A stretch of 23,064 nucleotides of DNA from an uncultured Verrucomicrobiae bacterium (lineage in GTDB: Bacteria; Verrucomicrobiota; Verrucomicrobiia; Chthoniobacterales; UBA10450). How positions within the stretch are numbered: position 1 is the first letter of the stretch; every line of letters starts with the position of its first letter. Location of the stretch: the NCBI GenBank assembly GCA_963815455.1, contig CAWFGO010000006.1:1-23064 (forward strand), read 5' to 3'. Shown here piece after piece: positions 648 through 23,064 of the stretch. Made by a program: the position numbers and the translations under genes. The notes beneath the pieces were generated by a model. It ran no database searches. It saw nothing but the letters and a program-made list of their open reading frames with translations, and was not told where the DNA came from.

Positions 648-652
648 TGGAG

Positions 653-3105
653 TTAGGGGTTGTGTCCGAGAGCGATCATCGGGTCGGCTCGCGTGGCGCG
701 AATCGCGGGCACAAAGCTGGCGGCCAGCGCCACCAACCCGAGCAACACGGTGACCAGGGCAAATGTCGGCCCATCGAATGCGCTGACCCGATAAAGCAAC
801 GTTGCCAGCGCGCGTGTGCTCAGGAACGCGAGAAATAAGCCGATGGAGGTCCCCCGCGCCGATCAACATCAGCGCGCGGACCATGACGAGATTTAAGACA
901 TCGCGACGTTGCGCGCCTAACGCCATGCGCACTCCGATTTCGTGCGTGCGTTGCAGAACTAGGTAGGAAATAACTCCATAAATTCCTACTGACGCGAGGA
1001 GCAACGCGATTCCAGCAAAAGCGCCAAAGAACACGACCGACAATCTCCGGGCGGCTATTGAATCGCCAATGATTTGCTCCATCGGTCGCACGTATGCGAT
1101 GGCGACACCGGAATAGATCGCCTGGACTTCGCGTCGAATGTTACCGATGAGCTGGCGCGGATCCATTGTGTTCCGGACGACGAGGATCATCGTTTGCGGC
1201 GGTGAATGCCAGAGCGGCAGATACATTTCCGGATTCGGATCGGTATCGAGGCCGAGATGATGCATATTTGTCACGATCCCGACAATCGGGATCCAGCGCG
1301 GATTCTTCGCCGGATTATCAAACGTGATGCGTTTGTCGAGCGCATCGCCGTTTGGCCAAAACTTGTTAGCGAAAGCCTGATTGACCAACACACCGCGGGC
1401 ATCTTTTTGGCTGTCGTCGGCGACCAGGGGCCGGCCGGAAAGCACCGGCGTTTGCAGAACACGAAAGTAATCCGGACTGACATTCGATCTCTTCATCCGG
1501 TCCCGGATCTCTCGGCGCAATCGGACGACCTTCGATTGAAACGACCAGTCGGAATTTTTCCGGAGAGCGGCAAAATAGCTGTGATTACAGCGGCAGTCAC
1601 CCCGGAACGCTTGCAGCTCTGCGCACAAGCTCATCGGAAAAATGTATAATGTTCTCCGGTTTGGGATAGCTCAGCGACGGAAGAGTGAGTTCCATCGTCA
1701 ACACGTTTTGGGGGTTGAATCCGGGATCGACCTGCTGTAGGCGCGCGAAACTTTTGATGAGCAAACTCGCGCTGGTAAGGAGGACCAGGGCGAGCGCCAC
1801 TTCGGCGATCACCAGAACCGTACCCGCGAGATTGCGCCGGCGGCCTTCGCTTGTCCCACGACCGCCCTCTTTCAATGCGCCACTCAATTCCGGTCGAGCG
1901 GTCGTGAGCGCAGGGATAAGGCCAAAGAGTAAACCAGCGCCGATCGCCACCACCAAAGTAACGAGCAACACCGTGAGATCGAGATTGACGTCGCCCAGTC
2001 GCGGCACCGTTTGAGCGCCAATACGTTTCAGGACGTTCACGCTCCAGCCTGCAGTCAGAACACCGAGGCTACCTCCGGCGAGCGCGAGCATGACGCTCTC
2101 CACCAGCATCTGACGCACAATAGCCCATCGGTTGGCCCCAAGCGCGACGCGAATTGCAAACTCTCGTTCGCGCGCGGTGGCACGCGCGAGCAGCATCGTC
2201 CCGACGTTTGCACAACCGATGACCAAAACCAGGCCGACGGCGGCGACCAGGATGAGCGACATGGAACGAACCGGCGCGGTCGTGAGTTCCTGCAATTGCA
2301 AAACGTCCGCTCCGAAGCTTGTCCCCGAGGGATATCGGTTCGGATTTTCCCGTCTCATTTGGGCGTTAACCGTTTCCATTTCCGCCTCAGCCGAGTGGAA
2401 AGTCGCGCTGTCCCGCAGGCGAGCGATCGCGACAAGGTTACGCGAATAACGAGCCTGCATTTGTTCTTCCGTGAAAGCGAGCGGACACCAGAGATCGGCT
2501 CGCTCGGAAAATGAGGCAACTGCCACGTTGTAGAGTCGTATTGGGAAATCAAAACTTTCCGGCATTACTCCGACCACCGTGTAGTTGCGTCCATCCAGCG
2601 CGATCTGGTTGCCGACGATGTTTGAGTCGGAATTAAACCGCCGTTTCCACAATCGCGCGCTGATGACGACGACGTTGTCGCGGCCAACCTGGCATTCTTC
2701 CCCAGTAAAGGTCCGTCCCCGCACTGGTTTGATGCCGAGTGCATCGAACACGCCGTCAGTGACCAGCGCGGCAGGAACACGTTCGGGCTGATCGCCGCTG
2801 GCCAGATTGTAATTGGCGGTGGTGAAAGCGCCGATTCTTTCGAAGCTGCCAACGCGCTGCTCGTAATCGCGAAACTCCGGCGCAGACATCGGTATTTTCT
2901 CGAGCCCCATCGAATGAAAATGCTGCACGATGAGTGCAAGACGCGACGGCTCGTGAAACGGCAGGGGACGGAACAAAAGGGCGTCGACCAGACTAAACAC
3001 GGCGGTATTGGCGCCGATGGCGAGCGCCAGAGTGACAATCGCGATTAGAGTGAACCCTGGTGTTTTTGTCAGGCTCCGGAACGCGAAACGGATTTCTTGG
3101 AGCAT
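653..3105 (-). CDS. ABC transporter permease, duplicated MacB-PCD/FtsX (ADOP-like), frameshifted in this sequence
   Basis: ORF 1597..3105 has [13 protein letters not shown] and [29 protein letters not shown] 447..1634 has [25 protein letters not shown]. The C-terminus [18 protein letters not shown] ends at 653. Several indels lie at ~1490-1600 and ~830-855. Confidence 0.88.
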
Positions 3106-3117
3106 GACACGCGTCCG

Positions 3118-5703: not shown

Positions 5704-5726
5704 GTGCGGCAGGGACCGCTCTATGT

Positions 5727-6428
5727 TCAAGCGGCGACCCGGTTGTCTTCCACCACCCGGCCGTCGAACAGATGCACCGTCCGATCGGCGTGTTGAGCGA
5801 AGCGCTGATCGTGCGTGACCATGCAGATGGTCGCGCCACCGGCGTGCAGTTCCTTTAGCAAATCCATGACCGCTTCGCCATTGCGCGAATCGAGATTTCC
5901 CGTCGGTTCGTCGGCCAGCAGGATCGCCGGTTTACCGGCAAGTGCGCGCGCTACGGCCACGCGTTGCTGCTGACCGCCGGAAAGCTGGCTTGGCAAATGT
6001 TTGGCCCGATGCCCCATGCCAACGCGCTCGAGCGCTTGCGTCACGAAGCCTTTTCGCTCGGAAGCAGCCATGCCGCGATAGGTCAGCGGTAGCTCGACGT
6101 TCTCATACACGGTCAGATCGCCGATCAAGTTAAAGCTTTGAAAAATGAATCCGATCTCGCGATTGCGGATCCGCGCGCGCTCGGGAAACGAAAGATTGGC
6201 AACTTCGCTTCCTTTCAAGGCATAGCTTCCGTCCGACGGCGTATCGAGCAGGCCGAGGATCGATAATAGCGTCGATTTGCCGCAACCGGACGGTCCGGCA
6301 ATGGAAAGATATTCGCCGGGGCGAATATCGAGATGAATGCCGGACAAGGCGTGTGTCTCGACCTCATCGGTGAGAAACACTTTTTTAACGTCTTGAAGGT
6401 GAATGAGAGGAGTGGATCCGTTTTTCAT
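5727..6428 (-). CDS. ABC transporter ATP-binding protein (LolD/MacB type)
   Basis: Intact 233 aa with Walker A GPSGCGKST, signature LSGGQQQRVAVARA, Walker [13 protein letters not shown] and H-loop VTHD. Confidence 0.96.
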   Translation of the reverse strand: MKNGSTPLIHLQDVKKVFLTDEVETHALSGIHLDIRPGEYLSIAGPSGCGKSTLLSILGLLDTPSDGSYALKGSEVANLSFPERARIRNREIGFIFQSFNLIGDLTVYENVELPLTYRGMAASERKGFVTQALERVGMGHRAKHLPSQLSGGQQQRVAVARALAGKPAILLADEPTGNLDSRNGEAVMDLLKELHAGGATICMVTHDQRFAQHADRTVHLFDGRVVEDNRVAA

Positions 6429-6472
6429 AGGTTGAGGTGTTGGCTTGTTTTGGGTTTGGTTCTAGATGTGTG

Positions 6473-7798
6473 TCAGTTCAGTCGAATCCGATCGTGCGTG
6501 TCCCAGGCGCTGGTATCGGACAAGATGACTTGGTCGCCCGGCTGCAGGCCGCTCACGATTTCGATGGTGTTGACTGAACTCTTCCCGAGTTTTACCGGCG
6601 TTCGGACAGCCTCGGAGCTGCCGGAAACGAGTTTGAAGATTCCAACGGTGCTGCTTTCCTGGCCAAAAGCCGGACGGCCGACGTAAACGACATCGTTCAG
6701 TCGCTCGAGCTCGATTGTTCCATCGACGCTCAAGTCCGGGCGGGCGCCTTTCGGCAAATCGCCATCGAGTGCGACGTCGACCGTGACGGTTCCTTGCTCG
6801 ACCGCGGGATCGACCCGGATAACATGGCCGTCAACTACGCCGTTGCGTGTGTCGATCGTGGCCTTCTGATCGATCTGAATGTCTTTCGCCTGGGTCTCCG
6901 CGATTTTGATTTGGGCCTTGAGCTTGGTCGGGTCGGCCACACGAGCGAGATTGTCGCCGACTTTTACGCGCTGACCGATCTGCACCGGTAATTGCTGCAG
7001 CACCCCGGACATGCCGGCGCGCACGTGTAACGCCTCGACCTGGTCTGTCTTTAATTTCGCCAGTTGTTTGGCCTGATCGACCGCGGCTTGCTTCGACGCG
7101 ATTTGCGGTTCGATCGAGCTTCGGGAAAACTCCAGCCGCTTTTGCTCAATCTGGTCGCGGTTTTCCAGCTCCGCTTCCTTCACTTTCGATGTCTTGTAGG
7201 TCAGCACGGCAATGAGTCCATTCTTTGCCAGCTGGTCGTTCGTTTCCCGCTCCATTTTCGCTTGTTGATACTCGGAGTGAACACGCGCGGTCGTTGCCTC
7301 TTGATCGAGAACTTCTCGCTGCAGAGTTGCTCGCAGAGTTGTTAGCTCCGCCTCCGCCGCGGTCGCCTGAAGATCGGCGTCGTGAGCGCTCTGTTCGAGT
7401 TCGGAACTGCTCATTTCAAGAATCACCGTGTCGGGCTCCACGGGTGTGCCTGGCCGAACGATGATTTTTTCCACGCGACCCTCCGTTGCCGCCGCGATCC
7501 AACGAATATCTTCCGGAACAAGTGTGCCGAGCCCCCGCACCTGGCGCACCATCGGGCCGCGTTTTACCGTGTCGATCCAAACAGTCGAGCGATCGACGCT
7601 CGGTACGGCCGGCTTGAGCCGAGACAAACCGATCGTTGCCAGAATCACTCCCAGCGCAATCGCCGAAATCGTGATGATCCGCTTTTTCCTTTTTTTGGCC
7701 GCGACCCCGGGCCGGGCAATATCCATGGAAGAAAGGCTAGGCGTAAAGCCCTCCGGCCGCACGATTGTAGTTTCCGCTTTTGCTTCGCTTTTCGTCAT
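6473..7798 (-). CDS. Efflux membrane fusion / periplasmic adaptor protein (HlyD/MacA family)
   Basis: Basic stretch KKRKKR plus one TM, lipoyl-like halves (EGRVEKIIVRPG; VRAGMSGVL), coiled-coil hairpin and C-terminal GLQPGDQVI. Start placed at ATG 7798 after a GGAAGGA SD-like sequence. Confidence 0.92.
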   Translation of the reverse strand: MTKSEAKAETTIVRPEGFTPSLSSMDIARPGVAAKKRKKRIITISAIALGVILATIGLSRLKPAVPSVDRSTVWIDTVKRGPMVRQVRGLGTLVPEDIRWIAAATEGRVEKIIVRPGTPVEPDTVILEMSSSELEQSAHDADLQATAAEAELTTLRATLQREVLDQEATTARVHSEYQQAKMERETNDQLAKNGLIAVLTYKTSKVKEAELENRDQIEQKRLEFSRSSIEPQIASKQAAVDQAKQLAKLKTDQVEALHVRAGMSGVLQQLPVQIGQRVKVGDNLARVADPTKLKAQIKIAETQAKDIQIDQKATIDTRNGVVDGHVIRVDPAVEQGTVTVDVALDGDLPKGARPDLSVDGTIELERLNDVVYVGRPAFGQESSTVGIFKLVSGSSEAVRTPVKLGKSSVNTIEIVSGLQPGDQVILSDTSAWDTHDRIRLN

Positions 7799-7832
7799 CG
7801 GGGTTGATCCTTCCAAGTCAGAGTCCGCCGGT

Positions 7833-8117
7833 TCAGCGAATGAGACCGAGAACGGCGTGCGCTGCCTGGAACAACGGCAAACAGACGGTCAGCATCACTG
7901 CGCTGAAGACGGCCGTTTCCGCCAGAAAGTCGCGGTGCGCTTCGCCTTCGAAATACGCGCGGGTGACCTGGAAAGAATTGCTTACGTCCAGGCTCGAGCA
8001 ACGAGCGGTGTAACCGCCGATCCCGACCGCTTGGTAGTTGGAGTCCGTGACTGGAACCCGGCGATGAGTTGCATTCGCTCGCTCGGTTTCGTCGATTATT
8101 TGAACTGTGGGTTTCAT
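7833..8117 (-). CDS. Small hypothetical protein (94 aa) with C-terminal TM helix; first gene after sigma-54 promoter P1
   Basis: ATG start, co-oriented and 35 bp before the adaptor gene, hydrophobic segment AVFSAVMLTVCLPLFQAAHAVLGLI. Shares a motif with ORF 13721..13942. Confidence 0.7.
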   Translation of the reverse strand: MKPTVQIIDETERANATHRRVPVTDSNYQAVGIGGYTARCSSLDVSNSFQVTRAYFEGEAHRDFLAETAVFSAVMLTVCLPLFQAAHAVLGLIR

Positions 8118-8189
8118 ATTTTCTTCTTAGGTGAGATGCGTTTGGGAGCGCATTTGGATTAGGATTTTTTTAAAGTCGTTACCCCCTAT

Positions 8190-8205
8190 TGCAAAGCCCG
8201 TGCCA
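8190..8205 (-). promoter_or_regulatory. Sigma-54 (-24/-12) promoter P1
   Basis: Minus strand TGGCACGGGCTTTGCA is a perfect TGGCACG-N4-TTGCA (GG-N10-GC). A sigma-54 activator gene is nearby. Confidence 0.9.
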
Positions 8206-8212
8206 CCGGGGA

Positions 8213-8254
8213 ATGGAAAGTGATAAATGACTAGTGACGAGTGACTTGTGAATT
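8213..8254. repeat. Degenerate heptamer tandem repeat
   Basis: atggaaa gtgataa atgacta gtgacga gtgactt gtgaatt. Confidence 0.65.
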
Positions 8255-8282
8255 GCAATCTCCTCGGCCCCTGCCGCGCTTC

Positions 8283-8320
8283 GCTTCGCTTGTGGGACAT
8301 CGCCGTCCCGATTTCGGGAC
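8283..8320. promoter_or_regulatory. Tandem enhancer (UAS) for a sigma-54 activator, upstream of P1
   Basis: Perfect palindrome GTCCCGA-TT-TCGGGAC at 8305-8320, plus a weaker site GCTTCGCTTGTGGGAC 22 bp closer (8283-8298). Same layout as 14048-14085. Confidence 0.78.
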
Positions 8321-8337
8321 GCGACCGTATCATGCTT

Positions 8338-8469
8338 GTCTTTCCTGAGCGGAAGCGAAGGATCTCGCGAGAAGAGGCAATGCTCGCGCATCAGGAAGCG
8401 CTCGCGCATTCAGTGTGGTTCGGTCCGTTGCGATACGATGCCGAGATCCCTCGCTGTGCTCGGGATGAT
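8338..8469. repeat. Palindromic intergenic repeat (GTCATCCTGAGC...GCTCAGGATGAC type, REP/MITE-like)
   Basis: Arms GTCTTTCCTGAGCGGAAGCGAAGGATCTCG (8338-8367) and CGAGATCCCTCGCTGTGCTCGGGATGAT (8442-8469) are imperfectly complementary. A related copy is at 15866-15946. Confidence 0.75.
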
Positions 8470-8474
8470 GATGC

Positions 8475-9809
8475 CTAACAAGGCAATCGCAGCAACGCTT
8501 CTGCGCCAGTGCCGCTGCGTCGATTTGCCAGGGCCAGCGAACCGCCGTGGGCTTCGGCAATTTGGCGACTGAGCGCGAGACCAATCCCGGATCCGCCCGG
8601 TTTGGTGGTGAAGAATGGCACGAAAAGATTTGTCGGGTTCATGATGCCGGGACCTTCATCAACGACGATCACTTCTACGCAGTCCCTGGTTTCGTGACAG
8701 CTAACGGTGACTCCGCCGCCGGTTTCGAGCGCAGAGTCCACGGCGTTGTGCACGAGATTGATCAACACCTGTTCGATCTGAGCCGCGTCGGCGTGAATTT
8801 TCGTTTTCGCGCCTGGAACAAGTTTGACGTTTAGTCGCGGCTCCAAGCTGATGACGCGCCGAATCAGCTCATCAAGATCGACATCTTCTTTCTGTGGCGG
8901 CGGCAGCTTGGCCAGCTTCGTATACGCCTGCATGAAACGGCTCAACGATTCCGCGCGCGCCTCGATCGATTTAAGCCCGCTCTGGGCGTCCTCTTTCCAG
9001 TCGGACGGCGGCGGGTCGCGAGTTAACAACGCTTCCAAACTTCCGGCGAGCGATTTGATCGGGGCCAAAGAATTGTTCATCTCGTGGCCGAGCACGCGGA
9101 CCAGGCTTTGCCAGGCGCGACGTTCTTCTTCCCGCAAAGTGCGGCTGAGATCGGTCAGCACGAGCAGTTCGTGTGGCAGGCCGCGTTCGCGAAATGTGCT
9201 GCGCCGCACCCCCCAACGGCCGGAACCGCCGGGAAAACTCAGGGTGAGCGGCGCGTCTTCGTCGGATTCGAGGCACGCAGCGAGTCCCAGTTCGTCCGCA
9301 GTTTTGCCGAGCAATTTGTCGATCGGCTTGCCCAGTAAATGTTCGCCGGCCCGGTTAACGAGGCGCAAATGCCGTTCCGGATCGAACGTGAAAACGGCGA
9401 CCTCGATTTCGGCCATGATAGTGCGCAACAACGCGGTGGCTTCGAACGCCCCCAACCGTTGCAGGCGCAGGGTTTCGCCGAGCATGTTGATCTCGAGCAA
9501 AGCTTCGCCAAGCGCATCGTCGACTCGAGCGCCGCGGGCGCGAATCGAGTAATCGCCTTCCCGCAATGCGCCCAGCAGATTCGCCATCGTTTGTAACGGA
9601 CGGACGATGTGTTCTCGCGCGCTTGCGATGAAACCGGCCAGACAACCCAACATCACGATTACGAACGTCCATTGTACTTTCGCGCTGTAGCCCCCGAACC
9701 AGAGAAAGGCCATGGCAATGACAATGGCGGGACCGGCTGCGCCAAGTGTGAGCCAGGTCAGGCGATTCTCATGGGAGAGACGATGTCGATCTTTCGACGG
9801 GCGTTTCAT
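8475..9809 (-). CDS. Sensor histidine kinase (2 TM, HAMP-like, PAS, HisKA, HATPase)
   Basis: H-box LGHEMNNSLAPI, N-box QVLINLVHNAVD, DEGPGI, FVPFFTTKPGGSGIGLALS. Two N-terminal TMs with a very short loop. Confidence 0.95.
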   Translation of the reverse strand: MKRPSKDRHRLSHENRLTWLTLGAAGPAIVIAMAFLWFGGYSAKVQWTFVIVMLGCLAGFIASAREHIVRPLQTMANLLGALREGDYSIRARGARVDDALGEALLEINMLGETLRLQRLGAFEATALLRTIMAEIEVAVFTFDPERHLRLVNRAGEHLLGKPIDKLLGKTADELGLAACLESDEDAPLTLSFPGGSGRWGVRRSTFRERGLPHELLVLTDLSRTLREEERRAWQSLVRVLGHEMNNSLAPIKSLAGSLEALLTRDPPPSDWKEDAQSGLKSIEARAESLSRFMQAYTKLAKLPPPQKEDVDLDELIRRVISLEPRLNVKLVPGAKTKIHADAAQIEQVLINLVHNAVDSALETGGGVTVSCHETRDCVEVIVVDEGPGIMNPTNLFVPFFTTKPGGSGIGLALSRQIAEAHGGSLALANRRSGTGAEALLRLPC

Positions 9810-9813
9810 CCGT

Positions 9814-9848
9814 TTCGAAATTCGAGATTCAAGATTCGAAGTTCGAAA
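9814..9848. repeat. Heptamer tandem repeat, 5 units
   Basis: ttcgaaa ttcgaga ttcaaga ttcgaag ttcgaaa, filling the regulator-kinase gap. Confidence 0.8.
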
Positions 9849-9851
9849 GTA

Positions 9852-11198
9852 TCAGAGTCCATATTGCTGCAAGCGCCGGTAAAATGCGCTCCGGCTCAGG
9901 CCGAGCGCTTCCGCGGCTTTCCTCGCGTTCCCATTGTTTCGCGCCAGCGCCTTCTTAATTAGGAATGCCTCGACTTCTTCCAGGCTCATTTCCTCGAGGG
10001 GGCGCGATTCGCCCACGCTGCTCGTCAAGCCGAGGTCGCCGGCCTTGATCTGTCGATCTCGCGACATGAGCACCGCCCGTTCGATCACGTGGTCCAGTTC
10101 GCGGACGTTTCCTGGATAAGAATGTTGCATCAGGCGGTCGCGAGCCGGTTCATCGAACCCGCCAATCTCTTTGCGGTAGCGCTGGGTATGTTGCTGAAGA
10201 AAATGATTCGCCAACGCCATGATGTCTTCGCGCCGGTCGCGTAACGGCGGCAGCCCGATCTCGATCGTGTTCAGCCGAAAAAGTAAATCCTGCCGAAAAC
10301 GGCCGGCGCCGACTTCGTCATGCAAATTCGAGTTCGTTGCCGAAATGATCCGGACATTCGCGTGCAAGGTCTTGGATGAACCGACTCGCTCGAACTCGCC
10401 GGTCTCGATCACGCGCAGCAGCTTGGCCTGCTGGCTCATTGGGATGTTTGCGATTTCATCCATGAAGAGTGTGCTCTCGTCGGCCAGCTCGAATCGTCCC
10501 GCGCGGTCCGTCTTTGCGTCGGTGAATGCGCCCTTGACGTGTCCAAACAGTTCGCTTTCGAAAAGTGTTTCGGAAAGCCCGCCCATGTTGACCGTGATCA
10601 TCGATTTGGCCGATCGCGGCGAAAGCGAATGCAAGGCCTGGGCGACCAATCCCTTGCCTGTGCCGTTCTCGCCTGTTATCAGCACATTCGCGTCCGAAGG
10701 CGCGACCCGCGAAATCATTTCGATGACCGGCCGCATGGTTGGCGATTCGGCAATTAGATTTGGCGCGCTCCCGCGAAGAAGTTCGTTCTCGGCTTCCAGT
10801 TTGCGGCCGCGGCGGAGCGCCCCCGCCAGTTCGACTTGTGTCCGCACAATCGCGAGCAACCTCTCGTTGTCCCACGGCTTCGGCACGAAGTCGCGGGCGC
10901 CCCGCTTCATCGCTTCCACCGCCAGATCGATTGTCGCCCACGCCGTCATGACAACGATCGGCAAAGTACTGTCGATCGCTTGAATTTTTGGGATGACCTC
11001 CAAACCTTCCTGGCCTGAGGTGGTGTCGCGGGTATAATTGAGATCCATCATCAACAACGCATAATCTTTTTTTTCCAACGCGTTGAAAACCGCCGCCAGC
11101 GACGTGACCGCGTCGGTCTGATATCCGGCGCCTTTAAGAAGAATTCGCAACGCTTCCAGCACGTCGTGCTGATCATCTGCGATTAGAATTTTCCTCAC
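9852..11198 (-). CDS. Sigma-54-dependent response regulator (NtrC family: REC, AAA+, Fis HTH)
   Basis: REC (ILIADD...MMDLN...FVPKPW), Walker A GENGTGKG, ESELFGHVKGAFTDA, LFMDEI, FRQDLLFRLN, YPGNVREL and HTH AAEALGLSRSAFYRRL. Confidence 0.96.
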   Translation of the reverse strand: MRKILIADDQHDVLEALRILLKGAGYQTDAVTSLAAVFNALEKKDYALLMMDLNYTRDTTSGQEGLEVIPKIQAIDSTLPIVVMTAWATIDLAVEAMKRGARDFVPKPWDNERLLAIVRTQVELAGALRRGRKLEAENELLRGSAPNLIAESPTMRPVIEMISRVAPSDANVLITGENGTGKGLVAQALHSLSPRSAKSMITVNMGGLSETLFESELFGHVKGAFTDAKTDRAGRFELADESTLFMDEIANIPMSQQAKLLRVIETGEFERVGSSKTLHANVRIISATNSNLHDEVGAGRFRQDLLFRLNTIEIGLPPLRDRREDIMALANHFLQQHTQRYRKEIGGFDEPARDRLMQHSYPGNVRELDHVIERAVLMSRDRQIKAGDLGLTSSVGESRPLEEMSLEEVEAFLIKKALARNNGNARKAAEALGLSRSAFYRRLQQYGL

Positions 11199-14853: not shown

Positions 14854-15855
14854 GTGGACCTGAATCACATTTTTCTTTTCGTTGCGGTGATCTCGCCGCT
14901 GCTTGTTCTGGCCCGCGCCTGGCGGCCTGGCAGAACATACCGTGGGTGGCGAGTGGCTTCGCTCATCGTCCTCGCCGTCACCGGGCTGGCCTGGATATTT
15001 TTTCGTAACCAGGCCGGATTTATTGGCGGCGGCGTGTGGTTCGCGCTTCTGTTTGTTCCAGCCGTCGGCTTGCGGAAAGTAACGGAGCTGGCCGCGCAGC
15101 ATCGTTACCGGGACGCGCGACGGCTTACCATCGTGCTCCAACTTTTTCACCCCAGCGTGGAGCTTCGTCAGCAGTGCGAACTATTTCGCACGCTTGAATC
15201 CAATCAACGCGCCGGATCTGCCCCGGCGTTTTCGCTTCGGCCCGGATTAGTCCAGAAAAATCGGGATGGGAGCCTTCGAAGCGCTCCTGCGGTGGGAATT
15301 CTTATTCTTTTGAATGCCGCCGTGTTTCTCGTGGAAATTAGATTTGGTAATTCTGACAGTGCAATGAACTTGCATTGGCTCGGTGCGCTCGAACCGTACT
15401 CTGTCGTCGCGATGGGCCAGTACTGGCGTCTCGTTACCTCGCTCTTCTTGCACGCCGGTGTTGCGCATTTGCTCTTCAATCTCTTTGCCCTCTATGTGCT
15501 GGGACCGGGACTGGAAAGAACCATCGGCTCCCTCCGGTTCGCCGCTGCATATTTGATTTCCGGAATCGGCTCGAGCGTGGGAGTCGTAGGACTTACCGTG
15601 ATCGGCGCCATTCGTGCCGCTCAGGTGGTCGGCGCATCGGGCTGCGTGATGGGGATAGTCGGCGCCTGGGCCGGTTTTCTTCTTCGACATCGTCACGCGC
15701 CGCGGGCGAAAGAACGATTGCTGAATATCCTGCTCATTATCGGAATCCAGACCGTGTTTGACCTAACGACCCCGCAAATCAGCACCGCCGCGCACGTTTG
15801 TGGTTTGATCACCGGATTTTTTGTCGGGTTGATTACGGCGCCCCGGAAGCGATGA
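14854..15855 (+). CDS. Rhomboid family intramembrane serine protease with extra N-terminal TMs
   Basis: YWRLVTSLFLHAGVAHLLFNLFAL, catalytic GASG and AHVCGLITG. Confidence 0.93.
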   Translation: MDLNHIFLFVAVISPLLVLARAWRPGRTYRGWRVASLIVLAVTGLAWIFFRNQAGFIGGGVWFALLFVPAVGLRKVTELAAQHRYRDARRLTIVLQLFHPSVELRQQCELFRTLESNQRAGSAPAFSLRPGLVQKNRDGSLRSAPAVGILILLNAAVFLVEIRFGNSDSAMNLHWLGALEPYSVVAMGQYWRLVTSLFLHAGVAHLLFNLFALYVLGPGLERTIGSLRFAAAYLISGIGSSVGVVGLTVIGAIRAAQVVGASGCVMGIVGAWAGFLLRHRHAPRAKERLLNILLIIGIQTVFDLTTPQISTAAHVCGLITGFFVGLITAPRKR

Positions 15856-15865
15856 GATCGAATCC

Positions 15866-15946
15866 GTCATCCCGAGCGCAGTCGAGGGATCCCGTTCCAT
15901 TAGCTTGGGGTAACATCGCGGGATTCTTCGCTCCGCTCGGAATGAC
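15866..15946. repeat. Palindromic intergenic repeat (REP/MITE-like) between convergent genes; may act as a terminator
   Basis: GTCATCCCGAGCGCAGTCGAGGGATCCCG (15866-15894) pairs with CGGGATTCTTCGCTCCGCTCGGAATGAC (15919-15946). Confidence 0.8.
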
Positions 15947-15954
15947 AGATTGGT

Positions 15955-16665
15955 TTAGCGCAGCCGCAATCGAACAATCTCTTTCAGCATCGACAGGCTA
16001 TCGCGCAGAAATCGCACCTTGCTGCCTTCCTCATGGTTCCAGCGCACTGGAATTTCGCGCAAACGCAGGCCGGCCCGATGCGCCAGATAGATCAGCTCCA
16101 CGTCGAAAGCAAAACCGTCGATGCGTGCCGCTTCCAAAATCGGGCGGCAAACATCGAGCCGAAATGCTTTGAACCCGCATTGGGTGTCCCAAAACGGCAG
16201 GCCGGTGGCGAGTCGGACGACCAAATTGAAAACGCGGCCGCCTTGTTCGCGCCGCCACGATTGATGAACTCCGATCAGACTGCGATCGAGCGCGCGCGAG
16301 CCGAAGGCAAGATCGACATCGCCGTTCGCGATCGGTCCGATCACTTTCGGAATTTCTTCCAGCGGCGTGGAAAGATCGGCATCGAAAAATAAACCGATTG
16401 GCTTTCGAGCGGCGAGCAGTCCCTTGCGCACCGCGGCGCCTTTGCCACGATTTGGAAAATTTTCCAGCAATCGATTCTCGATTTTCGTTCCGGAAAGCGC
16501 TGCCTTTGCCACTGTCGATGTTGCATCGGTCGATCCATCGTTTACGACGATCAACTCGCTCTCCGGCGCATTAGCGAAAAGATAATCGAGCGTTTTCCGT
16601 AGCGTCTCGCCGAGGCGGCCCGCTTCGTTGAAGCAGGGGATCACAACAGAAAAGGGCGACAGCAT
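15955..16665 (-). CDS. Glycosyltransferase family 2 (polyprenyl-phosphate glycosyltransferase, DPG/DPM synthase-like)
   Basis: SVVIPCFNE, VNDGSTD, NRGKGAAVR, FFDADLS, DTQCGFKAF and GFAFDVEL. Confidence 0.93.
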   Translation of the reverse strand: MLSPFSVVIPCFNEAGRLGETLRKTLDYLFANAPESELIVVNDGSTDATSTVAKAALSGTKIENRLLENFPNRGKGAAVRKGLLAARKPIGLFFDADLSTPLEEIPKVIGPIANGDVDLAFGSRALDRSLIGVHQSWRREQGGRVFNLVVRLATGLPFWDTQCGFKAFRLDVCRPILEAARIDGFAFDVELIYLAHRAGLRLREIPVRWNHEEGSKVRFLRDSLSMLKEIVRLRLR

Positions 16666-16674
16666 GTGCGAGTT

Positions 16675-16734
16675 GTAGAGGCGCGTGTCCCGACGCGCAA
16701 CTCCCCAAATTGCGGCGGATACAGCCGCTTCTAC
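16675..16734. repeat. GTAG-type REP doublet (REPIN-like)
   Basis: GTAG-AG-GCGCGT-gtcccg-ACGCGC on plus (16675-16698) and an inverted GTAG-AA-GCGGC-tgtatcc-GCCGC on minus (16734-16712). Confidence 0.65.
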
Positions 16735-16736
16735 AT

Positions 16737-17810
16737 CTATTTGTAAATTTCCACGACAAACTTGCCCTCTGGATCGACATAGGCGCGGTACATGCCGGAG
16801 GTATTGAAAGGCAGCGCGATGTTGCCGGCCCGGTCAATCGCAATCAATCCGCCTTCGCCGCCCAGCTTGGCGACCTTGTCCAGCACCGTTTGCGCCGCTT
16901 CTTGTAATTTCATTCCGCGATATTCCATCAGGGCGGCAACGTCTCGCGCGACGGTGGCACGGATGAAATACTCGCCGTCGCCGGTCGCCGAGACGGCGCA
17001 AGCCACATTGTTCGCGTACGTCCCGGCGCCGATCACAGGTGAATCGCCGATGCGGCCCGCTCTTTTGTTAGTGGTGCCGCCGGTGGAAGTCGCTGCGGCA
17101 AGATTGCCGTCTTTATCCAGCGCCACCGCGCCGACCGTTCCGTGTCGATCTTCATCTGTGATAATATAACTCTTGCCCGCCGCGCCGCTCTCCTCGGCGG
17201 TCTTGATCTTCTGTAATGCCTGCCAGCGTTCTTCAGTGTAAAAATATTTTTGATCGGGCAGAAGCTCGACACCGTTCTGTTTCGCGAACACTTCCGCGCC
17301 TTCTCCAGCCATCAAAACCGGACCGACCCGCGGAGACTTTGATGCATGTTTCGCCTTGTCCATGAGCAAGCGGGCGAGACTGATTGGACTTTTGATATGG
17401 CGCAAGTTCGCTACCGCGCCGGCTTTTAAACTCTTGCCGTCCATGATTGCCGCGTCCATTTCATTCGTCCCCGCATTCGTAAACACCGAGCCGCGCGCGG
17501 CGTTGAAATGGGGATCGTCTTCGAGAACGCGGACGGCGGCTTCGGTTGCGTCAAGGCTCGATCCGCCACGCTTGAGAATTTCGTAACCGGCAGTGAGCGC
17601 TCGCTCGAGCCCCGCTCGATATTCGCGCTCGCGTTCGGGCGTCATTTTGGTGCGGTCGATCGTCCCCGCCCCGCCGTGGACGGCTATGCCGAATTTTGCC
17701 TTATCCAATTTCATGTTTTTCTCCGGCGCCTCCGGTTTTTCCCCGGCGCTTTCTGCGCGGGAGGCCAGCGCCAGTGCTGCCATCGCCACGAGCGCCATCG
17801 CGGAATTCAT
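16737..17810 (-). CDS. iaaA: Isoaspartyl peptidase / L-asparaginase (Ntn hydrolase) with putative signal peptide
   Basis: IAVHGGAG, EMDAAIMDG, nucleophile site HG-TVGAVA, ATSTGG, GRIGDSPVIGAG and SATGDGEYF. Start placed at ATG 17810 before a hydrophobic Ala-rich leader; the exact start is uncertain. Confidence 0.92.
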   Translation of the reverse strand: MNSAMALVAMAALALASRAESAGEKPEAPEKNMKLDKAKFGIAVHGGAGTIDRTKMTPEREREYRAGLERALTAGYEILKRGGSSLDATEAAVRVLEDDPHFNAARGSVFTNAGTNEMDAAIMDGKSLKAGAVANLRHIKSPISLARLLMDKAKHASKSPRVGPVLMAGEGAEVFAKQNGVELLPDQKYFYTEERWQALQKIKTAEESGAAGKSYIITDEDRHGTVGAVALDKDGNLAAATSTGGTTNKRAGRIGDSPVIGAGTYANNVACAVSATGDGEYFIRATVARDVAALMEYRGMKLQEAAQTVLDKVAKLGGEGGLIAIDRAGNIALPFNTSGMYRAYVDPEGKFVVEIYK

Positions 17811-17924
17811 GGACGCGAATCTAACCTTGCCCGGTCGGCCGTGTCGAAAGCTTTCGTGAAAGGAGCGTCGAGCATTCAATTTTCTGCTTTTCCAGCCTGA
17901 TTACTGGGCCACCTTCCCCTGAAC

Positions 17925-18782
17925 ATGCCCGGCATCGACAATGACAAATCCGAATCCGAGAACGCGCTCTCGGCGAATCCGCTTGTTTTTGTCCGCGAAT
18001 TTGGCCGGTTTGGCGACAACTTTTTCATAGAAGTTGGGAGCATCTTTTGGTTCGTCATTCAGACGCTTGCCGAAACGTTCGAGCGTATTCGCAACGGCCG
18101 CGTCCCATTTCGCGCGTCCAGTTTTTTCCGGCATACCGAACGGGCCGGGGTCGATTCGGTCCCGTTGGTGGGCCTGGTTTCATTTTTGCTCGGCCTGACC
18201 ATGGCCCTGCTCACCGGCTATCAATTGCAGCGTTTTGGCACGGAGCGGCTGGTTCCTGGCCTGGTTTCAATCGCGTTTACCCGCGAGCTCGGCCCATTGA
18301 TCACGGGAATCATGCTGGCGGCCCGGATCGGCGCGGCTTTCACGGCCGAGCTGGGCACAATGCAGGTATCCGAGGAAGTGGAAGCGATCGAAGCAATGGG
18401 AATCGGTCCGCTGCGATTTTTGGTTGCGCCTCGTATGCTGGCGCTGTTTCTCCTGATGCCGTGTCTTTCCACGGTGGCGAACGTGGCCGCGATTGCCGGC
18501 AGCAGTCTGGTTTGTCGGGCTTACTTTAGCATGGCTTTCCCTTATTTTATCGATCTGGTGACCGATGCATTGCTCATTCGCGATATCATCACCGGCATCC
18601 TCAAGAGCTTCATTTTCGGTTTCTTGATCGCTGGAATTGCGTGTTACCGGGGGCTAACCGTGAAAGGCGGTGCCGCCGGTGTCGGCACGGCGACTACATC
18701 GAGCGTGGTTACCGCCATCACCACGGTGATCGGTTTCGATACGCTCTATAACATTGTTTACATCGTCTTCTTCCCATTGTGA
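17925..18782 (+). CDS. mlaE: MlaE/YrbE-family ABC permease
   Basis: RELGPLITGIMLAARIGAAFTAELGTMQVSEEVEAIEAMG and GGAAGVGTATTSSVV. Confidence 0.93.
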   Translation: MPGIDNDKSESENALSANPLVFVREFGRFGDNFFIEVGSIFWFVIQTLAETFERIRNGRVPFRASSFFRHTERAGVDSVPLVGLVSFLLGLTMALLTGYQLQRFGTERLVPGLVSIAFTRELGPLITGIMLAARIGAAFTAELGTMQVSEEVEAIEAMGIGPLRFLVAPRMLALFLLMPCLSTVANVAAIAGSSLVCRAYFSMAFPYFIDLVTDALLIRDIITGILKSFIFGFLIAGIACYRGLTVKGGAAGVGTATTSSVVTAITTVIGFDTLYNIVYIVFFPL

Positions 18783-19570
18783 ACGCGACCAATTCCCACG
18801 TGGTTGAGCTGCGCGATGTGACCAAGCAGTTCGAGGAAAAGAAAGTGCTCGACGACATGTCGCTCGATGTGAACTCATGCGATCGGCTGGTCGTAATGGG
18901 CCAAAGCGGCAGCGGCAAAAGCACCATTCTGCGGCTTATTCTGGGAATTCTTCAACCCGACGCAGGCTCGGTGTTCTTTAAACAATTCGAAGTCACCCGG
19001 CTGCGCCGGCGAAAGTTGCAACAGGTCCGTCAGAACATCGGAATGGTTTATCAATACTCCGCGCTATTGAGCTCGCGCAACGTGCGGGAAAACGTCGCTT
19101 TACCGCTCGAGGAATTGACCGATAAATCGCGCAAAGAAATTGATGAAATTGTCGATCACAAACTCGAGCTCGTCGGCATGCTGGAAGCGCGAGAACAAAT
19201 GCCCTCGGAGTTAAGCGGCGGTATGCGGAAACGCGTGAGCCTGGCCCGCGCTCTCGTTCTCGAGCCGGAACTGATCCTGTTCGACGAACCATCCGCCGGG
19301 CTCGACCCCGTGATCACCGCGGTCATCGACGAATTAATAATCAGTCTCACCGAGAAATCGAAAGTGACTTCGATTATAGTGACCCACGACATGGGCAGCG
19401 CCTTTCGCATCGGCACGCGAATGGCTATGTTATACCAGGGAAAAATCATTGAAGATGCCGAGCCCGAGAAATTCAAACAATCGCAAAACCCGGTCGTCGC
19501 TCAGTTCTTGAGCGGCAGCACCGAAGGTCCCATTCTGGAAGGCAGCCAAGATGCAATTACGACGAAATGA
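18779..19570 (+). CDS. mlaF: MlaF/Mkl-family ABC ATPase
   Basis: GQSGSGKST, PSELSGGMRKRVSLARAL, LFDEPSAGLDP and VTHD. Overlaps the mlaE stop (GTGA). Confidence 0.93.
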   Translation: MNATNSHVVELRDVTKQFEEKKVLDDMSLDVNSCDRLVVMGQSGSGKSTILRLILGILQPDAGSVFFKQFEVTRLRRRKLQQVRQNIGMVYQYSALLSSRNVRENVALPLEELTDKSRKEIDEIVDHKLELVGMLEAREQMPSELSGGMRKRVSLARALVLEPELILFDEPSAGLDPVITAVIDELIISLTEKSKVTSIIVTHDMGSAFRIGTRMAMLYQGKIIEDAEPEKFKQSQNPVVAQFLSGSTEGPILEGSQDAITTK

Positions 19571-20558
19571 AATAATGACCGGACTGCTCGTGGTCGGCAC
19601 CGTGGCCGCGCTCGCGTTTGTGCTCATCCTTCTCGGCGCGCCCGGGCTTTTCCGCCCGCTGGTGACCTATCGAATTTACGTCGATAACGCCGCCGGAATT
19701 AAACTGGGGGCGCCGGTCATGCTGGCCGGACGAAAGATCGGCCAGGTTTCAAAATTGTTCTCGCCCGTGTCGCGTGAAGAAGAGCAGCGGGCGCAGGAAG
19801 CCGCCGCTGTTTATCGTAAACCGGAGGCAGGCGCGACGCCGGCGCGGCCCGATGGCAAACCGAAATATGAAGCACGCATCGACGTCCAGGTGGACAAGAG
19901 CGGGATCGTTTATCGCGATGCCTACGCGCGCCTGATGCAGCTCGGCTTGCTCGGCGAAATGGCGATCGACTTCACCCAGGGCACCGAGGCGTCAGGGCAG
20001 GCCCACGACGGCGAGATTTTCGCCGGCGAACGCACCCCGGATTTTAGCGAAGCGGCGTCCAAGATGCTCGAAATCATCAAGCCGGTCGCGGCCGAAGCGA
20101 CCTCCACCATGAAAGAGCTGGAGACCACGGCGCAAAATCTCAGCCGTATCACCGAGCAGAATTCCGAGCTCAACCTTGCCCTGGTTCAGTTCAAGAAGTT
20201 CGGCGAGCACCTTGTCGATCTTTCCGCGCCGGACAGCCCGCTTTCGGTCTCGCTCAGGAACATAGAAAAAATCAGCAACGACCTCTCGGCCAACAATAAT
20301 CTCGCCGTGACGCTCGATAACTTCCGGGACTCGTCGGAAAAATTAAAAATTACGATGCGCGATCTCGAACCGGTCGGCGCGAACATCAAGGAATTCAGCG
20401 AGACCATAAAAGCGGAGCCGTGGCGTCTGATCTGGCGCGGCAGCAAGAAATCTTCTGAAGAACAAGCGGCCGGCGAAGCCACCATCACCGTACGCAAAAG
20501 CACGAAAACAAAATCCCGGCCCAGCCCGACGCCCGGCGCGCGAACCGGCAGCCGCTAA
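19551..20558 (+). CDS. mlaD: MCE/MlaD-family protein with C-terminal helical extension
   Basis: N-terminal TM, NAAGIKLGAPVMLAGRKIGQV, GLLGEMAIDF and terminal PWRLIW. In an operon with mlaEF. Confidence 0.88.
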   Translation: MQLRRNEIMTGLLVVGTVAALAFVLILLGAPGLFRPLVTYRIYVDNAAGIKLGAPVMLAGRKIGQVSKLFSPVSREEEQRAQEAAAVYRKPEAGATPARPDGKPKYEARIDVQVDKSGIVYRDAYARLMQLGLLGEMAIDFTQGTEASGQAHDGEIFAGERTPDFSEAASKMLEIIKPVAAEATSTMKELETTAQNLSRITEQNSELNLALVQFKKFGEHLVDLSAPDSPLSVSLRNIEKISNDLSANNNLAVTLDNFRDSSEKLKITMRDLEPVGANIKEFSETIKAEPWRLIWRGSKKSSEEQAAGEATITVRKSTKTKSRPSPTPGARTGSR

Positions 20559-20735
20559 GCTGCCGTAGTTCAGGGTAGCGCACCGCCTGCCCGCCGGTTC
20601 GGGCGTTTGGCGTGTCTGGTGAGCGCGTCCTCGCGGTGACGAACTTTATTCAGGCGGGATATCATCGTGGCGGAGCGAACACTTTGGAGCTGGTCCCGTG
20701 TTTCCTCTTACCTTGTTGGCTAGGTTGTTGGGTTG

Positions 20736-20772
20736 AATCCGTTATCGGAGGTGGGCCAGCCGTTTTCGGACG
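20736..20772. promoter_or_regulatory. Tandem enhancer-like palindromes upstream of P3
   Basis: AATCCGTTATCGGAGG (20736-20751) and CAGCCGTTTTCGGACG (20757-20772), 21 bp apart. CCG-N4-CGG core as in the P1/P2 enhancers, about 76-97 bp from P3. Confidence 0.55.
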
Positions 20773-20847
20773 CGGCCGAAAAATCTTCACTTAATCGACG
20801 ATTTTTGTTTACATGATCGTCACACAACTGTAACACAGTTGTAACAA

Positions 20848-20863
20848 AGGCACGATTGGTGCT
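20848..20863 (+). promoter_or_regulatory. Putative sigma-54 promoter P3
   Basis: AGGCACGATTGGTGCT (GG-N10-GC, two deviations from consensus). ATG is 14 nt after the -12 C, as at P2. Confidence 0.6.
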
Positions 20864-20875
20864 AAATGTGAACAT

Positions 20876-20962
20876 ATGCTCGTAATCGGTTTTCTTGTCG
20901 TATTCATTGGGATCCCAGCTTCGATCGCCTTCTATTTGGGCCGAACCAAAGCGGCACGGTAA
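20876..20962 (+). CDS. 28-aa hydrophobic membrane peptide MLVIGFLVVFIGIPASIAFYLGRTKAAR (below the ORF-track cutoff)
   Basis: Manually translated ATG..TAA: 22 uncharged residues then a basic tail, directly behind P3. Confidence 0.55.
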   Translation: MLVIGFLVVFIGIPASIAFYLGRTKAAR

Positions 20963-21017
20963 GGACGTCGGCTGACCTCCCACAAACGGGCGTTTACCCG
21001 AGTCCGCGGGGTTCAAT

Positions 21018-21141
21018 ATCTAACGAGAACAAGCTGAGCGACCGCCGCCGAGAGCGAGCGTGGTCCGTAGTCGGTGGTCAGTAGTCATGTTGTCGCGCGG
21101 AGCCCAGGCGGGTGGCGGTTAGCTCGACTGATTGGTTAGAT
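21018..21141 (-). other. Integron attC site 1 (complete, 124 bp)
   Basis: Minus strand: R'' ATCTAAC (contains the cassette gene stop), L'' region agtcGAGCtaACCGCC, variable loop, GGCGGTcGCTCagct, then R' GTTAGAT. The R boxes are perfectly complementary. Confidence 0.88.
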
Positions 21142-21447
21142 CGTCGTTCCATCACGCAACGAAGCGCGCCATCGATGGAAAATCCACCAGAAGCTCCAGA
21201 ACACTGTAAGGACAACGAGATACAGCAAAACATCGATCGCAATGCTCAAGCCAAGCACGCTGAAAACCTGAGCCGTGTGACCCGGCTCCATGGCCATCAG
21301 CAGGACCGAACTAGGCCAAAAGTAGAACAGTCGCTCTCCAGCGAAGCTAAAAATGTGCAGCCAAAGTCCGACCATGATAAGCACCGGCAAAACTGCACCG
21401 ACAATAATCGCCAGCAGAATGACGTATCGAAATCTGGGAAGGCGCAT
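21136..21447 (-). CDS. Gene-cassette ORF: 103-aa membrane protein with about 3 TM, function unknown
   Basis: ATG is 4 nt after R' GTTAGAT of attC2 and TAA lies within R'' of attC1, the classic cassette geometry. Strongly hydrophobic. Confidence 0.8.
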   Translation of the reverse strand: MRLPRFRYVILLAIIVGAVLPVLIMVGLWLHIFSFAGERLFYFWPSSVLLMAMEPGHTAQVFSVLGLSIAIDVLLYLVVLTVFWSFWWIFHRWRASLRDGTTI

Positions 21448-21451
21448 CGAG

Positions 21452-21552
21452 ATCTAACGAGAACAAGATGAGCGACGGCGGAGGAGGGGCGCGGCGCTCG
21501 GAGTTGAAGTGTGGAAGTCATATCAAGAGTGGAGCGTACGGTCCGCCGTTAG
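21452..21552 (-). other. Integron attC site 2, interrupted at the L'' box by the IS110-family element
   Basis: ATCTAACGAGAACAAGATGAGCGACGGC is 26/28 identical to attC1. Inner arms GACGGCGGA/TCCGCCGTT are present. Homology stops after GTTAG, where attC1 continues GTTAG-CTCG. Confidence 0.82.
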
Positions 21553-21599
21553 ATGCCATGAAGGGTTGAAAGCGTGGGCAAAACGGGCACACGCGTTGT

Positions 21600-22715
21600 A
21601 TGAAAAACAAAACAACAACAACCCTTCATGGCGGAGAGAAGTTTAACAATTCAAGCGCCCCTGGCAATGGGGCAGTGAGGCGGGTGTGGAAGCTTGGGCT
21701 GGACGTGGACCTGCGTTTTATGGTGGTGGCGATCCAGTGTGGGCGGGGAACGATTGGGCCGGCGCGGAAGTATACTCGCGAGCAGTTGCTCGAGTGGGTG
21801 AAGCAAAAAGTGGGTGTAGGCGATGTGGTCTACGCGGTGTGGGAATGCTGCGGATTTGGGTACACGTTGCACGAGCAATTAACTCAAGCGGGAGCAAAGA
21901 GCGTCGGGACGACCCCGATGCGATTAAATTTGGAGCGGCGGCGGAAGAACGACCGGATGGATGCGCGCGAGTTGTGTGTGCGATTGAGCCGTTACCTGGA
22001 TGGGCAGAGGAGGAATAAGACCAATCCGAATCCCGAGCCGGGCGGAGCAACAACGGCGGAGCTGGGGCGGCAGCGGGAGTTTTGGAAACGCCAAGTGCGG
22101 CGGCTGGAGAATCACGGGCGTGCGCTGCGGATCGAGTATGAAGATGAGACCCTGGAGGCCGGGTGGGGCGGACCGCGGAAGTGGAAACGGCTCGGGGCGA
22201 GTGCAGCGAATTTGTGCGCGCCCAACTTGAACCGGTCATGGGGCAGATCCGAGCTGCCAAAGCGGAATTAGAGCGGCTGACCCAACAGATTGAAGCGCGG
22301 GTGAGGGAAAAAAAAATCCCGAAGGGACTGGGGGCGCTAACTGTATCTCTGATGGACGGGGAGGTGTGCGACTGGCAACGCTTCAGCACGCAAAGCCGTC
22401 GGGAGCTACACCGGGTGTTGCCCGAGCGAATACAGTTCAGCCGGGATCCAGCGTTTTGGAAGCATCGACCGGCACGGCAACAAACATTTGCGCACGCTCC
22501 TGGTCGAGGCGGTCTGGCGACTTCTTCGCTGGCAGCCTAATTGGCATGCTCGTCAGAAATATCTGGAGAAATTAAGGCACGGCGCCTCGCTGAAAAAGAA
22601 AATCGCAGTGGCCCTGGCCCGGCAACTCGCCATAGACATCTGGCGCTGGCGAACCGGCCGGGCCAGTGCCGCCGAACTGGGCTGGAGCCTGTCTACATCC
22701 CAGGTGAAACCCTAA
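21600..22715 (+). CDS. IS110-family DEDD transposase/recombinase, frameshifted in this sequence
   Basis: RuvC-like KLGLDVD, VWECCGFG and KNDRMDA. C-terminal domain SYTGCCPSEYSSAG...GSIDRHGNKHLRTLLVEAVW...KKIAVALARQLAIDIW. Indels near 22010-22060, 22200 and 22390. Confidence 0.9.
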
Positions 22716-22763
22716 CAAACAGATTTAACCCTCAGCTTTTACGAAACGGAACTTCCAAGCAAA

Positions 22764-22984
22764 GTTTGATTTGGCCGCAGGGTGGAACGCTGCTCGGCGC
22801 TGGAGCTGGTCCTTTGAAACCAAGGGATCATCGCTTAGATGGGGCGCGTTCCGCCCAAAGCGGCTTCCCAAAGTCAGGCACGACATCATGGGCTCGCACA
22901 ACAAAAGCGATGCTCGAATAGGTGTTGTTGAGTTGCCCCGGCGAGACAACACGACAGAGGGAAGCTGCACCCTGCGGATCAAAC
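22764..22984 (+). ncRNA. Putative bridge RNA / seekRNA of the IS1111-type element
   Basis: Closing stem GTTTGAT..CCGCAGGGTG / CACCCTGCGG.ATCAAAC. Domain 1: GGAACGC/GCGTTCC stem, internal loop, hairpin TGGTCCTTTG/CAAGGGATCA. Domain 2: GCGGCTTCCC/GGGAAGCTGC stem with inner hairpins. Folded by eye only. Confidence 0.72.
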
Positions 22985-23064
22985 CACTAAAGATTGGAAA
23001 AACCGGGAAAGGAAAAAACTAAAGAAAAACAAACAATACCCGTTCCACGGTTGACAACCCTCAT

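Follow-up and report, generated by a model that had tools for sequence, protein, structure and literature searches.

Insertion sequences of IS1111 layout in integron attC sites of Verrucomicrobiota carry a putative bridge RNA and seem to have acquired attC targeting separately from ISKpn4

Results

An insertion sequence interrupts an integron attC site at a contig end

The window analyzed here is an entire contig of 23,064 nt (C6), the sequence of which ends at position 23064; C1, C2, and C3 are further contigs of the same genome assembly. Its right-hand end holds an intact attC (attC1), a cassette ORF with no Pfam or NCBIfam match, and a second attC (attC2) that is broken after 21550 by an insertion sequence, hereafter element A (Table 1). 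The contig stops inside element A, 3 nt short of its right end, and the non-coding region 3′ of the transposase gene is about 350 nt long. An mlaE-mlaF-mlaD-like operon lies directly outside the cassette array (17925–20558), and ABC-transporter genes at 3–3105 are split by frameshifts.

Table 1. Features at the right-hand end of the window
Feature	Position	Strand	Remarks
attC1, intact, 124 bp, last cassette of array; empty-site reference	21018..21141	-	box pattern
Cassette ORF, 103 aa, hydrophobic	21136..21447	-	ORF and domain scan
attC2 far half (R′ box, L′ arm, centre, most of near arm)	21452..21550	-	99 nt here, 103 nt in C3 copy
Element A, IS110 family, IS1111 layout	21551..23064	+	1524 bp in C3 copy; last 3 nt past contig end
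Left terminal extension, 7 nt, begins with donor core AG	21551..21557	+	84/86 left ends identical
Left sub-terminal inverted repeat, 11 nt	21558..21568	+	one gap against the 10-nt right repeat
Transposase gene	21600..22715	+	frameshifted here; 373 aa and intact in C2 and C3 copies
Single-base gaps in transposase gene	near 22009, 22015, 22057, 22199, 22384, 22388		relative to C3 copy
Predicted target-binding stem-loop of bridge/seek RNA	22780..22856	+	
Target guide 1	22798..22807	+	reverse complement of attC +1 to +10
Target guide 2 (target −5 to −1), core AG, then AT	22832..22840	+	
AT after the AG of guide 2	within 22832..22840	+	matches the element's left end, handshake-like
Donor-side hairpin with compensatory changes, then donor guide	22890..22926	+	
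TTGACA hexamer, candidate −35 of circle-junction promoter	23051..23056	+	no good −10 found
Right sub-terminal inverted repeat	23055..23064	+	followed in other copies by AGG and the rest of the attC

BLAST against the genome identified four further full copies of element A at 96–97% identity, two on C1 and one each on C2 and C3. The C3 copy occupies the same attC site with the same cassette behind it, and the end of C3 aligns with 15.5–23.1 kb of the window at 94.7%, so the window and C3 are versions of one locus; the end of C2 is a third version, in which element A sits in the outer attC. All four independent element A sites in the genome are at one attC register. The frameshifts in the window copy may stem from assembly error. 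The donor guide of this copy reads TGTT, against AGCT in the other four copies and in 30/30 aligned close relatives. Overlaps between C6 and the ends of C1, C2, and C3 are 92–99% identical (window 1–11000 and 15500–23064) with patchy divergence (about 22% mismatch at 16.0–17.0 kb), and from these overlaps the assembly looks like a strain mix.

The interrupted site belongs to a genome rich in attC arrays. A box-pattern search found 60 intact attC-like sites, attC1 included, of 92–151 nt (median 120), and none with the same pattern in a reversed-genome control. The sites form arrays in which short ORFs lie between them. Two of the arrays terminate at integrases passing TIGR02249 (454 bits, cut-off 265), and the array of the window's locus is headed by an integrase gene that is split in C2 and C3 (L009:1211–2240 and L010:1165–1926), while the two C1 integrases are whole. 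Alone, attC1 folded no better than shuffles (z 0.7 to 0.9), so identification as attC draws on the boxes, the arrays, and the linked integron integrase rather than on folding energy. The attC boxes are here named R″, L″, L′, and R′, and certain arm bases are taken to be bulged in the hairpin. One array contains a duplicated two-cassette block (L012:420–1512 and L012:10665–11757), and some cassettes are common to arrays on C1 and C3.

Insertion occurs at one register and without target duplication

All copies of element A share the left junction ...GTT|AGATGCC ATGAAGGGTTG and the right junction CAACCCTCAT AGG|NGCTCC...GGTTAGA, and the element is antiparallel to the cassette. The initial annotation, made from the window alone, held that attC2 is interrupted and predicted that CTCAT, a few nucleotides, AG, and then the missing attC half with its box would lie beyond the contig end. 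The C3 copy is assembled through the site: CTCAT and AGG are followed by CGCTCC... and a GTTAGAT box, so the prediction holds in every part but the junction itself, which is CG and not AG. Rejoined, the two C3 halves restore an attC of 124 bp that is 92.5% like the nearest empty attC, has no gap against it in the last 30 columns, and folds with its outer boxes paired. It follows that the ends obey the 7-nt/3-nt IS1111 rule and that nothing is duplicated. A duplication of AG on both sides was considered and discarded, since with AGG retained the site is 3 bases too long and its fold is lost. The passages of PMC11187229 on IS1111 ends describe 7-nt left and 3-nt right extensions and sub-terminal repeats of 11–13 nt; the repeats of element A (10–11 nt, one gap) correspond to the short end of that range.

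The junction bases are inherited from one side each. Taking AG as the core, as was initially suggested, is correct for the element and its RNA, but the target core is NG. The first base of the left junction is A, the element's base, in 85/86 ends, and the first base of the right junction is G or C, the target's base, in 63/70 unique right flanks; the 60 empty attC carry G (24 sites), C (24), or A (12) just after the cut. Prediction of the right-junction base from its hairpin partner was weaker than hoped (25/39 occupied sites vs. 54/60 empty ones), so the claim of polarity is drawn from the direct junction counts. Such strict one-sided inheritance of mismatched bases fits top-strand-only insertion. 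One locus in a short attC (L014) has an aberrant junction, 5 nt off register and with most of the left extension missing.

Close relatives of element A are found in the same register. We collected 95 loci at ≥55% identity (10 genome contigs, the best 80 of 337 metagenome matches, 4 from this genome, and 1 from another related genome), dropping 5 duplicate loci. Left ends in 86 loci comprise 84 AGATGCC, one AGGGGCC, and the aberrant L014; right ends in 82 loci comprise 78 NGCT, 2 GACT, and 2 others. All 53 unique insertions with both flanks known, of which 4 come from this genome, have an attC feature on at least one side, and nearly all share one register. As contigs from short reads may combine the flanks of separate copies, the numbers describe flanks more than insertion events. 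The 53 divide into 35 with far arm and R box, 12 with R box only, 2 with far arm only, and 4 with a second element stacked in the same site, with none lacking both signs; the far arm was scored by weight matrix after a relaxed pattern with 24% false positives was dropped. Site specificity for long attC, with attC1 as the intact empty-site reference, thus stands as first proposed, and neither a right flank that fails to restore an attC nor a close relative in an unrelated site was found.

Guide sequence may not be the whole of this specificity. At ≤2 mismatches, the guides match 110 non-attC sites in the genome vs. 38 attC sites, so selection against gene insertions, or some attC feature, may contribute. 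The two halves are mismatched in 19/38 occupied attC vs. 11/60 empty ones, and two or more mismatches occur in 10/29 metagenome contigs vs. 1/9 genome loci; these may reflect chimeric assembly or real recombination.

The transposase is an IS110-family recombinase

The intact 373-aa transposase of element A is an IS110-family DEDD/serine recombinase. It scores 162 bits against NF033542 (cut-off 140), is above cut-off for PF02371, and gives 19.4 bits, under the cut-off of 29, for PF01548; these two domains are accompanied by the DEDD residues and the G--P----SG serine motif of the family, with D35, E82, D118, D121, and S281/S282 conserved in 13 aligned rows. A sequence search of the PDB gave no IS110 match, and the 10 best matches of the predicted structure (mean pLDDT 74) are IS621 and ISCro4 (E 2e-8 to 4e-7, TM about 0.5). 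The transposase belongs to a large family, and the best 120 matches listed are 76–100% identical to it. At E ≤ 1e-40 the transposase family is present in 21/121 related genomes and in 8/401 genomes drawn from the phylum, this genome included in both, these being counts made with different queries. Named relatives of element A are Verrucomicrobiota, and same-family relatives are titled Verrucomicrobiae, in line with the non-proteobacterial host that had been suspected.

Element A has the IS1111 layout: sub-terminal repeats with extensions, a long 3′ non-coding region, no duplication, and the IS1111 guide order, in which guide 1 (top-strand match, 22798) precedes guide 2 (bottom-strand match, 22832). 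Both parts of the original call, DEDD transposase and IS1111 layout, are thereby confirmed. Its transposase is longer than the 330–350 aa of the tight IS1111 cluster and lies outside the IS5075/ISKpn4/IS5708 clade. By eye, ISCARN28 resembles the group of element A, and the portion of PMC11208160 that treats ISCARN28 counts it as IS1111, so the IS1111 label depends on the scheme. ISGsu4 and ISMahy12 were considered as relatives and set aside, having by eye no likeness to the transposase.

Guides in a conserved, predicted 3′ RNA follow the target and one element end

The non-coding region of element A has the signature of a structured RNA. Its folding z in the window is −4.63, and three helices are kept in 30 close relatives chosen from 53 distinct sequences (98.8% of cells paired). 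Compensatory change is seen in 9/28 stem pairs, which is above all slid controls and was equaled in 0/500 shuffles, though the structure was derived from the same alignment, which favors it. An Rfam scan of 20500–23064 gave no match at E up to 1. A promoter scan returned one match, at chance level, and no good −10 at 17 nt from TTGACA. No circle joint was seen among the 15 of 20 joints listed, from contigs of 4 runs with relatives only.

Both target guides sit in an internal loop of the RNA and covary with the site that is struck. Guide 1 matches target +5 in 67/71 rows and target +8 in 57/71 (shuffled mean 33.7 for each); guide 2 matches target −4 in 51/69 rows (shuffled mean 32.7) and target −1 in 60/69 (shuffled mean 53.5). 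For +5, +8, and −4, 0/5000 shuffles were as high, counts that overstate significance since relatedness among the rows makes them non-independent. No covariation with the target is seen at guide 2 position −3 (29/69, shuffled 28.6) or at guide 1 position +1; 7 guide-2 rows look mis-parsed. Variants of guide 1 track the attC subtype struck. Beyond the close relatives (group A), group D comprises 20 loci of 33–44% relatives in which the right end lies directly before GGTTAG in 17/17, 13 nt further on, and guide 1 is CTAACC, fitting this target (17/17). The 3 loci of group E are in a REP-like repeat with matching guides, and group F has other targets with guides changed to fit.

A donor guide covaries with the element itself. 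The motif after the second hairpin copies the element's right end plus AG, and this right-end motif is ATAGG in groups A and D, ATAGA in group E and two betaproteobacterial elements, and ATAGC in group F. The base after the motif's AG follows target +3 (C, T, C, and G in A, D, E, and F), and guide 2's AG is followed by bases that match the left end of the element. Only as CATC, in close relatives, does a second donor guide show plainly; it was not evident in group D and not clear outside group A. For comparison, the relevant passages of PMC11208160 describe multi-loop donor regions in IS1111 elements. The guides thus covary with the target and, for one donor guide, with the element end, the pattern by which a bridge RNA is recognized. 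On this guide–target covariation, the RNA guidance that the initial annotation posited for element A appears well founded.

attC targeting in this lineage seems separate from that of ISKpn4

Known attC-targeting elements of IS1111 layout are distant from element A. ISKpn4-type proteins are 26% identical to the transposase over the aligned part, which brings them no nearer than IS5075 (24%). Five plasmid loci with ISKpn4-type elements, one of them annotated as ISKpn4, have the same orientation and are cut 6 nt before GTTAG, vs. 14 nt for element A, placing the cuts 8 nt apart. In a tree of 41 rows (LG+G4, 7 near-duplicates left out, long-branch warning at the root), with which a quicker mixture-model tree agrees, the clade of element A falls into a single group with ISEc45/ISSso6 and a pair of betaproteobacterial elements (100/99), and ISKpn4 groups with IS5075, IS5708, and ISShdy1 (99/98). 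A single clade for all attC-targeting elements of IS1111 layout is rejected (p-AU 7.7e-7), in a test with only 2 IS1111-attC rows (ISPa25 and other members left out), rows chosen after a tree was seen, and a hypothesis that came from the initial annotation. Groups A and D may share one attC-targeting ancestor (72/83). On these comparisons, attC targeting seems to have been acquired separately from ISKpn4 in this lineage.

The nearest named transposases, at 26–28% identity, are those of the ISEc45/ISSso6 group, with which unnamed IS110 elements on plasmids of Mycetohabitans and Cupriavidus are placed. End motifs and the TAGATGGG / GGATAG RNA motifs are common to these two betaproteobacterial elements and element A. 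Branching order within the ISEc45/ISSso6/betaproteobacterial/element A clade is not firm. Inspection of four records (ISEc45, ISSso6, Mycetohabitans, and Cupriavidus) found no attC flank.

Several IS110-family types occupy attC sites of one genome

Three further IS110-family types occur in attC sites of this genome, making four IS types at two registers, sometimes stacked in one site. Element B (L011:6096–7690; G000:C1 about 1713.6–1715.2 kb) encodes a 376-aa transposase, 37% to A, and uses the same register, with a 6-nt left extension and a guide 1 that fits its own site. Element C (L011:1400–3100; G000:C1 about 1708.9–1710.6 kb) encodes a 422-aa protein, 42% to ISEsa2, has an upstream RNA region and a 2-nt repeat at its ends, and lies in an attC one base before the GTTAG box; an internally deleted remnant is at G000:C1 about 1237.4 kb. 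Element C-like proteins have attC flanks in 3 of 14 other loci (L167, L171, and L172), and others are in REP-like repeats. The third type is a group-D 3′ remnant (G000:C1:1479897–1480490) that retains its guide region and ends at the attC R box of the largest array's outer end. Two different elements are stacked in one attC, 12–14 nt apart, in L049, L055, L062, and L064 (A with D) and in L090, L107, and L113 (A with C-like). Convergence of unrelated bridge recombinases on attC is well supported.

Discussion

Element A is very probably an insertion sequence of the IS110 family, with IS1111 layout, that uses its 3′ RNA as a bridge RNA and belongs to a lineage that came to target attC separately from ISKpn4, by reprogramming of the guides. 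We propose that the element leaves as a circle with the junction ...ATAGG|AG AT... and that, once the RNA is expressed, one of its loops pairs with both strands of a linear duplex attC arm (...GGTT|NG CT CCAG...) while a further guide pairs with the end of the element. Seen from the cassette strand, the scheme would be that of IS621, with a long guide, a short guide, and two handshake bases that match the opposite partner. Exchange by the RuvC/serine recombinase would take place on the cassette-sense strand, just 3′ of the core, which would leave the element antiparallel to the cassette, without duplication, and 14 nt from the R″ box. A top-strand pathway in which that strand's sequence prevails is described in bioRxiv 10.1101/2025.10.25.684509; a like exchange is what we infer for element A, where biased repair would look the same. 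A duplex target is favored by guide 2, which covers a base bulged in the attC hairpin.

Insertion splits the attC and places 1.5 kb between its arms, so IntI should no longer move the cassette, which should stay locked until the element leaves. The same locking is suggested for ISPa21 in the relevant section of PMC11616780, on limited evidence.

Element A resembles, and differs from, several known systems. With the IS1111-attC group (ISKpn4) it shares the IS1111 layout, apparent RNA guidance, the L″/R″ side of attC, antiparallel orientation, and absence of duplication, but it forms a separate clade with unrelated repeat and RNA sequences and is found in 92–151-bp chromosomal attC of Verrucomicrobiota. 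For IS621, a CT core, a cut 3′ of the core, and handshake guides are given in the passages on its mechanism in PMC11208158 and PMC13626964 (also PMC11208160). On the cassette strand element A shares the CT core, long and short target guides, the cut 3′ of the core, and handshake bases, as well as the fold (E 2e-8, TM about 0.5), whereas its RNA is 3′ of the gene, its sub-terminal repeats are long, one target core base is free, its donor loop is not a simple internal loop, and identity is 16%. Group IIC-attC introns (PMC3001079) are likewise mobile elements specialized on attC, but they are retroelements with different chemistry. Literature on IS1111, seekRNA, bridge RNA, attC, ISKpn4/ISPa21, and Verrucomicrobiota yielded no mention of this lineage, its register, or a separate origin, although ISfinder and the supplements of PMC11208160 may list the clade. 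RNA-guided insertion sequences in attC are already published.

Other readings of element A fit parts of the evidence. The initial annotation saw a divergent member of the described IS1111-attC group, with an attC-targeting ancestor in common with ISKpn4, ISPst6, ISPa21, and ISPa25. The shared 7-nt/3-nt extensions, sub-terminal repeats, 3′ RNA, orientation, and attC arm speak for this, as does the breadth of that group: the parts of PMC11187229 consulted place ISPa25 at only 46% to ISKpn4, yet with the same target, and its matrix gives ISPst6 46–47% in the columns of the ISPa25 group. Common ancestry nevertheless seems highly improbable given 26% identity, the AU result, the intervening position of IS5075, IS5708, ISShdy1, and others, cuts 8 nt apart, and nearest relatives that strike non-attC targets. 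The RNA could alternatively be a seekRNA that picks the target only, with the protein reading the ends via the inverted repeats and the donor match incidental. We consider this unlikely, since the RNA motif tracks the right end through ATAGG, ATAGA, and ATAGC and the base after the core tracks target +3 across groups A, D, E, and F; in its favor, the inverted repeats are conserved, the second donor guide is weak, and the sections of PMC11187229 on IS1111 seekRNAs give only target matches and report that an 82-nt RNA suffices.

A further question is whether the substrate is the folded single-stranded attC hairpin, or whether attC structure is needed besides the sequence match. All two-flank insertions have attC features despite many non-attC sequence matches, as such a requirement would predict, yet guide 2 copies both near-arm T bases, one of them bulged and partnerless in the hairpin, and a target C at −1 is met by a guide C (4 closely related rows). 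In 13/53 insertions, together with the short-armed L014, there is moreover only a short arm plus R box and no detectable far arm. We regard a folded substrate or an added need for attC structure as very unlikely. As for the window copy, a truly dead, decaying allele is a plausible reading, if short of probable, beside that of a badly polished contig end. It carries 6 frameshifting deletions and two changes in invariant donor-guide bases, whereas 3 kb of unique DNA at 17.5–20.5 kb has only 1 gap; and its differences from the C3 copy at 22.0–22.5 kb are mostly synonymous (21 synonymous codons, 13 not), which makes it a distinct allele. Poor polishing is favored by the facts that all ORF gaps are single-base losses, that attC1, attC2, and the left end lose bases too, that other C6 genes are split, and that a C1 copy has one such loss.

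Returning to a bridge-RNA element that reprogrammed its guides, a wider picture can be sketched, which we hold to be doubtful: soil Verrucomicrobiota attC would be a niche shared by unrelated bridge recombinases that retune their guides, and recombination between their copies would reshuffle arrays without IntI. If true, this reshuffling would explain the excess of mismatched halves in occupied sites. IntI-independent shuffling is not well supported, because most of the mismatches of two or more bases come from short-read contigs and could be artifacts of chimeric assembly.

These elements bear on how bridge recombinases find their targets. The clade is a natural reprogramming series, with guides for attC subtypes, a second register 13 nt away, and non-attC repeats. 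It also informs the question of seekRNA vs. bridge RNA, since a donor guide and handshake-like bases covary within an IS1111 layout, and because intact copies exist, all of this is testable in E. coli. attC targeting would then be something that bridge recombinases have reached again and again via few guide bases, and not the property of one proteobacterial group.
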